From assembly GCA_005889345.1 (NCBI GenBank), contig VBFR01000230.1, forward strand, positions 1-60,430: a stretch of 60,430 nt of DNA, in the 5' to 3' direction. Positions 18,606-23,103 of this stretch are shown in pieces. The position numbers and the translations under genes were made by a program. Numbering within the stretch: the first letter of the stretch is position 1; every line of letters begins with the position of its first letter. The DNA comes from Chloroflexota bacterium (GTDB lineage: Bacteria > Chloroflexota > Dormibacteria > CF-121). Under the pieces are notes generated by a model, which ran no database searches, was not told the origin of the DNA, and worked only from the letters and a program-made list of their open reading frames with translations.

Positions 18606-19856
18606 ATGGCGATCGCAGGCCTGCTCGCCGCGTCGTATTCCATCAATCAGCCGGGGATCCAGTTGCCCTTCATCACCAATCGTTGGGCGGTCGGCATCTT
18701 CTTCCTGGTCCACATCATCTTTGGCTCCTTTACCATGGGCGCCCTCGTGCTGGGGCCGACGTACGAGTGGATCGGACTGCGCCGAGAGGACCCCCGCTAC
18801 GAGCGGCTTGCCCGCTCCTTGGGCAATGTCAACCTGAAGATCTTCAGCCTGGGCGCGACGCTGGGCGGGTTCGCGGTGATCGTACTGGTGGGACTCTACC
18901 CGACCTTCTTCGTTTCCCTCATCACGCTCTTCTTCTGGCCCTCGGTCGTCGCCTTCAGCATCTGGTTCCTGACCCTGGGCGGTATCCTCCTCTACAACCT
19001 TCGCTGGGACCGCTTCCGCCTACGGAAGGGAGCGCACATCCTGATCGGCTACGCGACGGCGGCCACCGAGCACATCTTTCTGTTCATCATCGTGGCCCTC
19101 GACAGCTATCTCCTGACGCCCCAGGCCGGCCAGGGTACGGGCGCCTTCTTCAATGCCTCCTACTGGCCCGAGCTGGGCCATCGCTTCGTCGGCAACCTGT
19201 CGTGGGCCTCGTTCTTCATTGCCGCCGTTGCCGCGGTCTATGCCGCCGCTAGCCGCCTGCCCGCCAACCGGCTGTATTTCCACTGGGCGGCGCGTACCAG
19301 CCTGGTGGTTGGATTCGTCACGCTCGCAGTCCAGGTCGTGCTGGGAGCGGTTTTCGTCGAGAGTATCAAGCAGGCTTCCCCTGGCGCCTTCCATTACTCG
19401 CTTGAGGGACCCTTCGCCTGGCTCTGGTTGGTGCAGGTTACCTTCATCGCCATCCTTCTCGTCGGTACCAACCTCTATTTCTGGCAGTCCCGGTCGACGG
19501 CGGCGGGGCCTATCCTGACCGGCCTTGTGGCGCTGGCATCGCTGATCACGATGGCGCCGGCCGCGCTCTTCCCGAAAGGCCTGTTCTGGTTGCGCTACGT
19601 GGCGCTCGGCGTTGCCGTGCTGCTCAGCCTGCTGCACTGGCTTCTATCGCGGCCACGAGCCCGCTTAAAGGGCGCGGATCTTCGACGATCCAGCCAGGTG
19701 ACGCTGGCCGTGACTGGCGCCAGCGCGCTGCTGCTCTTCCTCCTGATGGGCGTCATCCGGACGACGGCGCGCAGCGACTACACCATCTACGGCGTCATGA
19801 AGGAGTCGGACAGCTACGGGATCTTCCAGGCCCCGTCGAAGGGCTTCTATCCGTAA
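18606..19856 (+). CDS. Cytochrome bd subunit I-like membrane protein (divergent, copy A)
   Basis: TM1 His (FFLVHIIFG), YLLTP, FFNASYWPELGHRFVGNL, C-terminal MGVIRTTARSDYTIYG; no KLAAxE Q-loop motif. Confidence 0.75.
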   Translation: MAIAGLLAASYSINQPGIQLPFITNRWAVGIFFLVHIIFGSFTMGALVLGPTYEWIGLRREDPRYERLARSLGNVNLKIFSLGATLGGFAVIVLVGLYPTFFVSLITLFFWPSVVAFSIWFLTLGGILLYNLRWDRFRLRKGAHILIGYATAATEHIFLFIIVALDSYLLTPQAGQGTGAFFNASYWPELGHRFVGNLSWASFFIAAVAAVYAAASRLPANRLYFHWAARTSLVVGFVTLAVQVVLGAVFVESIKQASPGAFHYSLEGPFAWLWLVQVTFIAILLVGTNLYFWQSRSTAAGPILTGLVALASLITMAPAALFPKGLFWLRYVALGVAVLLSLLHWLLSRPRARLKGADLRRSSQVTLAVTGASALLLFLLMGVIRTTARSDYTIYGVMKESDSYGIFQAPSKGFYP

Positions 19857-20092
19857 TGGGCTCGCTCCAGACGTTCTTTTACCTGGCGCTGATTTCGGCC
19901 GTCATGATCGGCCTGACGCTGCTCCTCGTTGGGGTCGTGGCATTCGGCCTGGTGCGCTGGTTTCGCCAGGCGCGCGGCCAGACCCCCCTCACGTTCTGGC
20001 TGATCGGTACCGCCGTGACTGTCGTGCTCTTGGTCATCGTGCTGGGCACGGCCGGCGTCCTCTACGGGTTCATTCGCTATGGGGCATCGTGA
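19856..20092 (+). CDS. Small two-TM membrane protein
   Basis: 78 aa, two hydrophobic helices; TAATG overlap with the upstream gene. Confidence 0.7.
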   Translation: MGSLQTFFYLALISAVMIGLTLLLVGVVAFGLVRWFRQARGQTPLTFWLIGTAVTVVLLVIVLGTAGVLYGFIRYGAS

Positions 20093-20570: not shown

Positions 20571-21736
20571 TGCGCCGCCGGCTGAGCGCTGCCTACGAAT
20601 GGTTCGATGAGCGCACCGCCATTCGCAGCCTGCTGCGCAAGGGCCTTTACGAGGCGGTGCCGGTCCGCGGCGCCTGGTTCTACACGCTGGGGAGCGCGAC
20701 GCTGGTATTGATCATTCTTCAGCTGGTCACCGGCATCTTCCTCACGCTGCTTTTCGTCCCGTCCGTGACCGAGGCCTGGCAGAGCCTCAATTACCTCAAG
20801 GAGCACGACGCCTTCGGCTCCATCGTCCGAGGCATCCACCTCTGGTCGGCGTACATCTTGCTGTTCGTGATCGGCCTGCACATGGTGCGCACCTTCTTTT
20901 CCGGCTCGTACAAGCGGCCGCGCGAGCTCAACTGGGTGACCGGCGTCGGTCTGTTCGTCCTCGTGCTTGGCATGGCGATCACCGGCGCCTTCCTCCCCTG
21001 GGACCAGGCGGCGTACTGGACCGCCGTGGTGGTGACGAACATTCCGGCCTACACCCCGTTCATCGGCTCCTTCATCCGCGCCCTCTGGCGCGGCGCTGAC
21101 ACGGTAGGGCCGATCACGTTGAGCCGGACCTTCGGCATCCACGTGTGGTTGTTGCCCGCCATCCTCTTTCCGCTGATCGGCGCCCACCTTGCCCTGTTGC
21201 GCAAACATGGAGAGTTCGGCTCGTATATCAATTATCGCGGGGCATACAAGAGCCGCGAGGGTGTCGACGTCCCACCCGCGCCCGCCCAGCGACCGATCGA
21301 GCCACCTTACCCGGCCGCGCCCTCCGAGGAACTCTGGGCCGCACCCCTGCAAACCGAGGACTTTTATCCCCATCAAACCTTCAAGGACGGGATCGTCTCG
21401 GCCGCGCTGGTGATCGTCGTCTTCATCCTGGCGGTCGCGATCGGCGCTCCGCTCGAGGCGATCGCCGATCCGGCGACGACGAGCTACACGCCGGTACCGG
21501 AATGGTTCTTCCTGCCGCTGGACGAACTTCTCGTGCTGGTGCCGCAGCAGCTGATTCCCCTGGTGCTGGTGCTGCCGACCGGCGGCGTCCTGCTGCTCCT
21601 CGCGCTGCCCTTCATCGATCGCGGCCCTGAACGCAACCCCTTCGAACGTCCCGCCGTGATGGTGCCCGGCGCCTTCGCCGTGCTCTTTGTCGTCATCCTG
21701 ACCCTGCTCGGCTCGGGCCGGCTCTTCAACCTGTGA
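20570..21736 (+). CDS. Cytochrome b subunit (b6-like N-terminal part fused to a subunit IV-like part; QcrB/PetB-like)
   Basis: Four heme His residues (GIHLW, GLHMV, GIHVW, GAHL), SYKRPRELNW, LPWDQAAYW, and Qo motif PEWF. The real start is GTG at 20570, overlapping the Rieske stop. Confidence 0.93.
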   Translation: MRRRLSAAYEWFDERTAIRSLLRKGLYEAVPVRGAWFYTLGSATLVLIILQLVTGIFLTLLFVPSVTEAWQSLNYLKEHDAFGSIVRGIHLWSAYILLFVIGLHMVRTFFSGSYKRPRELNWVTGVGLFVLVLGMAITGAFLPWDQAAYWTAVVVTNIPAYTPFIGSFIRALWRGADTVGPITLSRTFGIHVWLLPAILFPLIGAHLALLRKHGEFGSYINYRGAYKSREGVDVPPAPAQRPIEPPYPAAPSEELWAAPLQTEDFYPHQTFKDGIVSAALVIVVFILAVAIGAPLEAIADPATTSYTPVPEWFFLPLDELLVLVPQQLIPLVLVLPTGGVLLLLALPFIDRGPERNPFERPAVMVPGAFAVLFVVILTLLGSGRLFNL

Positions 21737-23103
21737 TCGCCCTGCTCGCCCTCATCGCCCCGGCGTTCCACGGGCTGCAGACGCAGCTGCCGGCGCAAGC
21801 CCCACAGGGAAACAACATCGTCGGCGCCCAGATCGCGATCGGCAGCCTGTTCTCGCTGCACATCCTGATCGCGGGGCTCGTCAGCGGCGCCGCGGAGCTG
21901 GGGCCGGCGATCGAGTTCCTCGGCTACGTGCGGCAGCGTCGCAACTACGACCGCCTCGCCCACGGCCTCGGCCGCTTCATCACCTACTACTTCAGCGTCA
22001 GCTCCACGATCGCCATCCTGCTGATCACGGTGCTGCTGGTCGGCTTCTGGGGACACTTCTGGACGACGATCGTGACGATCGGGTGGTGGCCGCTGTTCAT
22101 CGAGGCCTGGACCTTCGTCCTACAAGTCAGCCTCGCCTACCTCTGGTACTACACCTGGGAGCCGATGCGCGCCTTCAAGGGCGTGCACATGGCGATCGGC
22201 GGCCTGCTGGCCGTCGCCTCCTTCCTGCAGGTCTACATGATCGACGTCATCGCCAGCTACATGCTGACGCCCACCAATCCGCAGAATCCCGTCCGGCTCG
22301 CCCTCAACCCCACGTCGTACCCGCTCACGGTGCATCGGACGGTCGGCAACCTCGCCTACATCGGATTTGCCTTCGGCGGCTTCTGCGCCATCCGCTACCT
22401 GCGGGCGAAGACTGCCGAGAACAAGCGCTTCTACGACTGGGCTGGCAGCTTTGGGCTGTTGTGGGGCGTTTCGATGACGCTGCTCCAGCCCGTTGTCGGT
22501 TATTCCTATGCCAAAGAGATCCAGCTGCACAGCTACGGCAGCTGGTACAAGATGATGTTCGGCTCGCTCAGCCCGGTCTTCCTCTGGCAGATCACCCTGC
22601 TCGGGATCATGTTCCTCACCGCCACCCTCTATTTCGCCCGCCGGCTGCGCACGGATGAGGCCCGTGGGTCGGGGATCCTGAAGCTGCTGGCCGTGGGGAT
22701 GGTGCTGACGACGCTGCTCGCGGCCCAGCCCTACGCCCTCGGCTTCTCCTACGAGACGGTGGCCGCCGCGGGCCTCAACCGCCCGTTCTGGGACGGCGGC
22801 CTGATCAATCCGCTGGGATCGATGATCCCCTGGAAGGTCCTGGCGCTGATGTTCTACACGCTGATCGCGATCGCGGCGGTGGTCTGGTACCTTCGCGGCC
22901 TGCCGGGCGTCGTCTGGGGATCCGCCCGCCGCGGCGAGCAGCGAATCCTGATGCTGATGACGATCCTGACCATGCTCATGATGGTCACCATGGGGTTCAT
23001 CCGCGAGAACGGTCGCGGGCCCTACCTGATCTCCGGCGAGATGACGATCCAGGGCCAGCAAGCCGTGCCGAGCGCCCAACCGACGCCGCAGTCCAGTCCG
23101 TAG
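21733..23103 (+). CDS. Cytochrome bd subunit I-like membrane protein (divergent, copy B)
   Basis: TM1 His (LFSLHILIAG), YMLTP, ALNPTSYPLTVHRTVGNL, C-terminal MGFIRENGRGPY; GTGA overlap with cytochrome b. Confidence 0.78.
   Translation: MIALLALIAPAFHGLQTQLPAQAPQGNNIVGAQIAIGSLFSLHILIAGLVSGAAELGPAIEFLGYVRQRRNYDRLAHGLGRFITYYFSVSSTIAILLITVLLVGFWGHFWTTIVTIGWWPLFIEAWTFVLQVSLAYLWYYTWEPMRAFKGVHMAIGGLLAVASFLQVYMIDVIASYMLTPTNPQNPVRLALNPTSYPLTVHRTVGNLAYIGFAFGGFCAIRYLRAKTAENKRFYDWAGSFGLLWGVSMTLLQPVVGYSYAKEIQLHSYGSWYKMMFGSLSPVFLWQITLLGIMFLTATLYFARRLRTDEARGSGILKLLAVGMVLTTLLAAQPYALGFSYETVAAAGLNRPFWDGGLINPLGSMIPWKVLALMFYTLIAIAAVVWYLRGLPGVVWGSARRGEQRILMLMTILTMLMMVTMGFIRENGRGPYLISGEMTIQGQQAVPSAQPTPQSSP

Follow-up and report, generated by a model that had tools for sequence, protein, structure and literature searches.

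What kind of respiratory enzyme is encoded when two unequal copies of CydA, subunit I of cytochrome bd oxidase, flank the genes for a Rieske protein and a cytochrome b? The question is raised by contig VBFR01000230.1 of assembly GCA_005889345.1, a stretch of 60,430 nucleotides (the window) from a soil metagenome-assembled genome (MAG) of Candidatus Dormibacteria (Chloroflexota) that is 88% complete. The two CydA paralogues, termed here copy A and copy B, lie on the + strand between positions 18606 and 23103. An earlier note described them as an asymmetric pair of the CydAA′ type, in which only copy B retains the glutamate of the C-terminal haem site, and proposed that B is the catalytic subunit and A a haem-binding partner that may relay electrons from the Rieske protein. 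We have examined the pair by profile alignment, structure prediction and comparison with orthologues. Judged by residue pattern and gene context, the system is the already published OR-N5a (copy B)/OR-N5b (copy A) type of CydAA′ accompanied by petA/petB/petD, and we consider it likely that the window encodes a bd-like complex of this type joined to its own Rieske/cytochrome b module.

RESULTS

Copies A and B Belong to the CydA Superfamily

The two proteins align with 27% identity over 406 columns (BLASTP, E = 6e-33), and both exceed the cut-off of 26.2 bits for the Pfam family PF01654, with scores of 49.4 bits for A and 48.7 bits for B. These matches cover the N-terminal half of the model only, so that what had been claimed of the C-terminal residues needed a separate test. 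We therefore used an alignment of 27 canonical CydA sequences including that of E. coli, in which the positions H19, E99, E107, H126, H186, K252, E257, M393 and E445 were verified on strain MG1655. When orthologue alignments of the two copies were compared with this set by global hhalign, A was matched with a probability of 99.5% (E = 3e-21) and B with one of 99.7% (E = 5e-26). A family profile was required to find the relationship in the PDB; phmmer with the single sequence of copy B gave no match there, and the profile then matched the Geobacillus chain 5DOQ_A.

AlphaFold2 (AF2) models calculated on the orthologue alignments had a predicted local distance difference test (pLDDT) score of 88.8 and a predicted template modelling (pTM) score of 0.88 for A, and 83.2 and 0.82 for B. 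In Foldseek searches of the PDB the ten best matches of each model were CydA/AppC chains (probability 1.00, template modelling scores 0.45-0.68), followed by CydB chains, in agreement with the two four-helix bundles of the CydA fold. A and B are paralogues in the CydA superfamily.

DSSP assigns 10 long helices to each model. Mapped onto E. coli CydA by way of hhalign, helices 1-6 correspond to transmembrane (TM) helices 1-6 and the last two to TM7 and TM8, TM9 being absent. Of the Q-loop, the start is represented by a short helix and the remainder is replaced by two extra TM helices.

Copy B Has the Full Catalytic Signature

Are the histidines and the glutamate singled out in the earlier note the positional equivalents of those in canonical CydA? 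The quoted strings and the coordinates of both copies proved exact. Copy A reads FLVHIIF (H36), GHRFVGNL (H192) and MGVIRTTARSDY (381-392), and copy B reads SLHILIA (H43), VHRTVGNL (H201) and MGFIRENGRGPY (420-431). Alignment to E. coli and Geobacillus CydA confirms the equivalence. In copy B, hhalign places H43 at H19, E124 at E99, Q131 at E107, H152 at H126, H201 at H186, E425 at E445 and R428 at R448. In copy A the corresponding residues are H36 (H19), A116 (E99), T123 (E107), H144 (H126), H192 (H186), T386 (E445) and R389 (R448). The same equivalences were obtained, independently of hhalign, from HMMER against 5DOQ_A. In the E445 region the match is collinear yet its local signal is weak (7.7 bits for HMMER domain 3 against 5DOQ_A, together with the global hhalign); the equivalence there is strengthened by the common ExGRxP[WY] pattern and the invariant arginine. 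The proposal that B is the catalytic subunit is supported by these alignments, which point to a full catalytic signature in B alone.

A search of both proteins for KLAAxE, whose absence had already been remarked upon, and for K[LIVM]AA found neither motif. K252 and E257 align with S270 and F276 in B, and with A261 and a gap in A. M393, the second ligand of haem b558 in canonical CydA, aligns to a leucine in B and to nothing in A; invariant methionines nearby in B are M274, M275 and M364. Public annotation is misleading in this respect, as NCBI names the orthologues of copy B "cytochrome ubiquinol oxidase subunit I" despite their having no quinol site, and those of copy A "hypothetical protein".

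Copy B also contains the segment QPxVGYSYAKEIQLH (252-266), followed by the invariant M274/M275. It lies between TM6 and the inserted helices, and has no counterpart in A. The idea that YAKEIQLH is a displaced KLAAxE quinol motif was rejected, as hhalign puts the segment before the K252 position and aligns SWYKMM with KLAAIE. On this alignment YAKEIQLH is a conserved segment specific to B and not a demonstrated quinol site.

The C-Terminal Glutamate Does Not Discriminate the Subunits

We collected 80 related loci, from which 62 A-type and 79 B-type orthologues were extracted; the nearest public proteins come from Candidatus Dormibacteraeota and "Chloroflexi bacterium" soil MAGs. The TM1 and HRxVGNL histidines that the earlier note had found in both copies are invariant or nearly so among these orthologues, which extend down to 28-31% identity. 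In A, H36 and H144 are each conserved in 63/63 sequences and H192 in 62/63, and in B, H43 is found in 79/79 readable residues (there is one X) and H201 in 80/80. Across the A orthologues just 17 of the 416 columns are invariant, and these include the H19 and H126 equivalents. At the H126 position of B (H152) an arginine is present in 33/80 orthologues, all of them from the deep clades, whereas the same position in A (H144) is invariably histidine.

The acidic residues of B are similarly well preserved, with glutamate in 79/79 aligned residues at E425 and in 79/80 at E124. Position 131 varies among the B orthologues (E in 41, Q in 33, M in 5). In 36 non-redundant A orthologues the A116 column, equivalent to E99, is nearly invariant alanine and otherwise Gly, Leu or Val, never Glu, and the E107-equivalent position is Glu in none of them.

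We then come to the residue on which the proposed asymmetry had rested, the E445 equivalent. The statement that only B keeps this glutamate is correct for this genome (T386 in A, E425 in B), but fails as a means of telling the subunits apart, since position 386 of A is Glu in 36/63 orthologues and Thr in the other 27/63. Relatives of copy A at ~78% identity read MGVIRETARSNY in this region, with the glutamate kept, and all the deep clades read MGVIKENAKLPC. In a maximum-likelihood tree of A rooted with B, Glu is found in both deep clades (30 rows), and Thr is confined to a single clade of 33 rows, that of the window, within which a nested, well-supported group of four rows has returned to Glu. 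The tree calls for at least 3-4 changes between Glu and Thr, each requiring two nucleotide substitutions (GAR to ACN or the reverse). Glutamate is ancestral in subunit A, and threonine is a lineage-specific change in the clade of the window that does not hold for the family as a whole. Among OR-N proteins more widely, the motif MG[FVY][IV]R[E/S/T]xx[RK] likewise recurs with E, S or T.

The asymmetries between A and B that are constant, and robustly so, are the proton-channel glutamate of B (E124) and its invariant QPxVGYSYAKEIQLH...MM segment. These, and not the E445-equivalent glutamate, are the reliable markers of the a and b subunits. A further methionine, five residues ahead of the E445 position, is invariant in both subunits (B M420, A M381).

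The Paralogues Flank a Rieske/Cytochrome b Module

The list of open reading frames (ORFs) places eight genes on the + strand between 14447 and 23103, in which every start overlaps or abuts the preceding stop. It is on these overlaps that the operon structure rests; a scan for promoters and terminators gave no signal exceeding that of shuffled sequences. The genes are, in order:

14447..16966, + strand: Usp-PCP_red protein of 839 aa (Pfam PF00582, 1.4e-39; PF08369, 1.3e-43, in 5 stretches)
16938..17894, + strand: ABC transporter ATPase, its start overlapping the preceding gene (Pfam PF00005, 8.5e-29)
17891..18598, + strand: ABC-2 type permease, with an ATGA overlap with the ATPase gene (Pfam PF01061 and PF12698)
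18606..19856, + strand: copy A, CydA paralogue of OR-N5b type, 416 aa, 10 predicted TM helices (Pfam, hhalign, AF2/Foldseek)
19856..20092, + strand: small conserved two-TM protein, 78 aa (ORF and tblastn across loci)
20079..20570, + strand: Rieske [2Fe-2S] protein (Pfam PF00355, 4.3e-11; NCBIfam b6f/bc1 Rieske models)
20570..21736, + strand: cytochrome b, a fusion of PetB and subunit IV/PetD, 388 aa (Pfam PF00033, 2.6e-42, and PF00032, 3.2e-07; NCBIfam cytochrome b6, 219 bits)
21733..23103, + strand: copy B, CydA paralogue of OR-N5a type, 456 aa, 10 predicted TM helices (Pfam, hhalign, HMMER, AF2/Foldseek)

The core of this arrangement, comprising copy A, the small ORF, the Rieske protein, cytochrome b and copy B, is kept in 62/62 of the related loci that include copy A. 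In the Rieske protein a twin-arginine translocation (Tat) signal (SRRQF) and an anchor are found at the N terminus, and CTHMQC and CPCH supply the motifs for the cluster and the disulfide. Cytochrome b begins with a GTG that overlaps the Rieske stop, and contains four histidine haem ligands (H90, H104, H191 and H206) and a PEWF Qo motif but not a single cysteine, and so lacks haem ci. No CxxCH motif is present in A, B or cytochrome b, and the operon contains no further gene, so that no c- or f-type acceptor for the Rieske protein was found within it.

The 78-aa protein (MGSLQTFFYLAL...) has the N-terminal motif MGxLQTxFYLAL, and its gene overlaps the 3′ end of copy A and the 5′ end of the Rieske gene. 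It matches no Pfam family. By tblastn, counterparts occupy the same place in ~38 loci, and in 31/31 deep-clade loci checked an ORF of 77-98 aa encoding two TM helices lies between A and the Rieske gene; in L116, one of the related loci, it is called as a 78-aa gene. A small two-TM ORF is found at this position in every related locus, to the deepest clades, and its product is probably an accessory subunit of the complex.

Some copy B orthologues are longer (~545 aa; locus L116 8001-9635, and proteins P0103, P0112 and P0114), carrying at the C terminus a periplasmic type-1 copper cupredoxin domain (Pfam PF00127/PF13473, motif CLYHPAM), with the rest of the operon identical. These fusions suggest an extra periplasmic electron-transfer centre on the a subunit, and may be taken as a weak hint that electrons enter at B.

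At the other end of the translationally coupled cluster, the product of the first gene combines a pair of Usp domains with five PCP_red repeats, which resemble the C-terminal part of BchB, and has a CxxC...CxxC motif like that of a zinc ribbon (C425, C440). A literature search on the PCP_red domain yielded nothing useful. This gene is upstream of copy A in most related loci, and the genes for the ABC ATPase and ABC-2 permease are also operon-linked in most, lying either upstream of A or, in deep clades, downstream of B. We can only speculate that the Usp-PCP_red and ABC-2 genes serve the handling of haem or of another cofactor, or have a regulatory role.

Two other respiratory loci are present in the same MAG. 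The one on contig C272 (12169-20174) is a respiratory operon of conventional type, encoding a Rieske protein, cytochrome b6, subunit IV, a cytochrome c in which CxxCH occurs three times, a CoxB extended by a cupredoxin-like tail, COX1, and a CtaA/CtaB-like fusion protein. On contig C200 (1144-3499) an intact cydB is preceded by a canonical cydA that is divided between two frames (1144-1884 and 1338-2489), either because it is a pseudogene with a frameshift or through a fault in the assembly. Given these two branches, the module in the window constitutes a third, dedicated one.

Comparison with Known Systems

The CydAA′-type pairing proposed for A and B matches a published architecture. Murali, Gennis and Hemp (2021; doi 10.1101/2021.01.16.426971) described OR-N5a/5b with petA/petB/petD in Rubrobacter and in "Chloroflexi bacterium" soil MAGs, and concluded that the a and b subfamilies probably co-associate, most a proteins keeping E99/E107 and b proteins not. 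Their Supplementary Table 6 lists H24, E104, E111, H132, Q146, H183 and E406 for N5a, and H34, A115, T122, H202 and S405 (S/E/T) for N5b. Counted from the H19 equivalent, the spacings in copy B equal those of N5a to within one residue, and at the channel positions copy A agrees with N5b in having Ala and Thr. The reference proteins are WP_143528031.1/WP_143528035.1 from Rubrobacter xylanophilus and, listed on the second sheet of that table, TMC48000.1/TMC47996.1 from a "Chloroflexi bacterium". The latter two are four accessions apart, which fits a five-gene core. We looked for both among the members of our clusters and found only sister accessions of the same MAG series; the NCBI accessions of the orthologues of the window belong to this same "Chloroflexi bacterium" TM* series.

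The resemblance is close. In both, the Rieske and cytochrome b genes lie between those of two CydA paralogues (~27-31% identity), each with ~10 TM helices and with neither a quinol-site motif nor an M393 equivalent. The a subunit has the equivalents of H19, H186, E445, E99 and H126, and Q at the S140 position, and the b subunit has those of H19 and H186, with Ala/Thr at E99/E107 and S, E or T at E445. There is no essential difference, although in the window petB and petD are fused and the a subunit has Gln in place of its second proton-channel Glu. The window also contains the small ORF for a two-TM protein, and linked to the operon the Usp-PCP_red and ABC-2 genes, none of which is mentioned in the text of Murali et al. 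that we read. A 2025 comparison of Nitrospirales treats OR-N5 CydAA′ as an established but uncharacterised type of oxidase, with oxygen affinity unknown (PMC12342949). A search of the literature on bd oxidases of Dormibacterota returned nothing specific.

A more distant relative is the CydAA′ of Caldivirga maquilingensis (qOR4a/qOR4b), for which O2 reduction has been demonstrated by experiment (Murali et al., 2021). There too, just one of two subunit I paralogues has the full catalytic set. Unlike the pair in the window, however, qOR4a keeps its quinol site and oxidises quinol itself, qOR4b has lost the equivalents of H186 and E445, and there is no Rieske/cytochrome b partner. Canonical CydAB (E. 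coli 6RKO/7OY2, Geobacillus 5DOQ) shares the fold of TM1-8, and the H19, H186, E445, R448, E99 and H126 equivalents in copy B. By contrast, the pair in the window lacks the Q-loop, K252/E257, an equivalent of M393, and TM9, having two TM helices in place of the Q-loop; its partner subunit is a CydA paralogue rather than CydB, and its electron donor is probably the Rieske cluster rather than quinol directly.

The OR-N1 and OR-N2 enzymes (Nitrospira, Ca. Manganitrophus) and the OR-N5 enzymes of Nitrospirales belong with the window to the OR-N family, having the C-terminal MG[FVY][IV]R[E/S/T]xx[RK] motif and a quinol-oxidising module as partner. OR-N1 and OR-N2 differ in having 14 TM helices, mostly Ser at the E445 position, and cytochrome c partners, and the Nitrospirales OR-N5 adjoins alternative complex III (ACIII) and not a Rieske/cytochrome b pair. 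The Rieske/cytochrome b part of the window is itself like that of b6f and of the Bacillus-type bc complex (b6c), with a Tat-exported Rieske protein (CTHxxC/CPCH), a b6-like cytochrome b (H-x13-H, H-x14-H) and a PEWF subunit IV part, but lacks a cytochrome f, c1 or c subunit and the cysteine for haem ci. The bd-like subunits stand in the place of the electron acceptor.

DISCUSSION

How might such a complex operate? Quinol would be oxidised at the Qo site of cytochrome b, in which the PEWF motif and all four histidine ligands are present. One electron would pass via the Tat-exported Rieske cluster at the outer face of the membrane, and the cluster would most likely reduce the b558-like haem (at the H186 equivalent) of the CydA pair directly, given that the operon has no c-type haem motif and the CydA paralogues no quinol-binding loop. 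O2 would be reduced at the di-haem site of B, since B alone unites the equivalents of H19 and E445 with a proton-channel glutamate of the E99 type. Copy A would take the place of CydB, in an electron-transfer or structural role. It probably binds haem, as suggested by its invariant histidines; with the glutamate lost in the clade of the window, A could there provide canonical ligation for no more than one of the two high-spin haems.

Some observations weigh against this account of an OR-N5-type complex with a single catalytic subunit. Neither copy has an equivalent of M393, and a b558-like site, if present, would have to be ligated differently. The B subunit of the window has Q131 in place of the second proton-channel glutamate. 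Most A clades keep their C-terminal glutamate, so that for the family a second active or haem-rich site in A may exist. To our knowledge no OR-N enzyme has been purified, and what is said here of O2 reduction, of haem content and of contacts between subunits is inference.

The third of these points leads directly to the strongest of the alternatives, that both paralogues are, or ancestrally were, haem-complete and catalytic, with two O2-reducing sites, the A subunit of the window being a second active subunit that has recently degenerated. The ancestral state of A and the 36/63 orthologues that keep Glu are as this would predict, and the nested return from Thr to Glu, at a cost of two nucleotide changes, suggests selection for the glutamate; H36, H144 and H192 are moreover invariant or nearly so. 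Yet none of the non-redundant A orthologues has Glu at the E99 or E107 equivalent, leaving A without the CydA-type proton pathway required to convert O2 into water, and the invariant motifs specific to B are missing from A. We consider two catalytic subunits unlikely.

Might the acceptor be something other than O2? The complex could reduce NO, peroxide or another small oxidant, or serve mainly as a protective electron sink. No activity has been measured for any OR-N enzyme, the oxygen affinity being unknown (PMC12342949); the genome already has the Rieske/cytochrome b/multihaem c operon with a haem-copper oxidase and a canonical cydAB locus; and the first gene of the operon encodes universal-stress domains. 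However, both ligands of the di-haem site and the first proton-channel glutamate are strictly conserved in B, just as in bona fide O2-reducing CydA, and the distantly related CydAA′ of Caldivirga is an active O2 reductase (Murali et al., 2021). A different acceptor thus appears improbable.

That copy A is a haem-free structural equivalent of CydB, its conserved histidines serving only in folding or in lipid or quinone binding, is very hard to credit. In its favour, the second subunit of canonical bd oxidase is a haem-free protein of the same fold, CydB chains are among the Foldseek matches of A, with weaker scores, and the clade of the window can dispense with the glutamate. Against it, a mere 17/416 columns of A are invariant and two of them correspond to H19 and H126, the residue equivalent to H186 is kept in 62/63, and the best structural and profile matches of A are to CydA and not to CydB.

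The reading we prefer, an OR-N5-type CydAA′ complex joined to its own Rieske/cytochrome b module, places the locus in a branch of the cytochrome bd superfamily that has been described in the literature yet is biochemically uncharacterised. To the known system our analysis adds the toggling, clade-specific Glu/Thr position in A, the markers of the a and b subunits, the helix map in which two TM helices replace the Q-loop, the conserved two-TM small subunit, and the linked Usp-PCP_red and ABC-2 genes. Were a Rieske/cytochrome b module to supply a bd-like site, each electron would contribute more to the proton-motive force than it does in a canonical bd oxidase, possibly with high O2 affinity retained, and this could bear on the persistence of the abundant Dormibacteria of soil.

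A bolder possibility, which we put forward tentatively and hold to be rather less probable than not, is that the five-gene core is a self-contained, cytochrome-c-free quinol:O2 "bc-bd" machine, in which a His-ligated haem of one CydA paralogue takes its electrons straight from the Rieske cluster, haems are present in both paralogues, and the Glu/Thr toggle in A switches this subunit between three-haem and two-haem states. If true, such a machine would combine a Q-cycle with a high-affinity site of the bd type, and this would suit the trace-gas-oxidising, starvation-tolerant Dormibacteria of soil.

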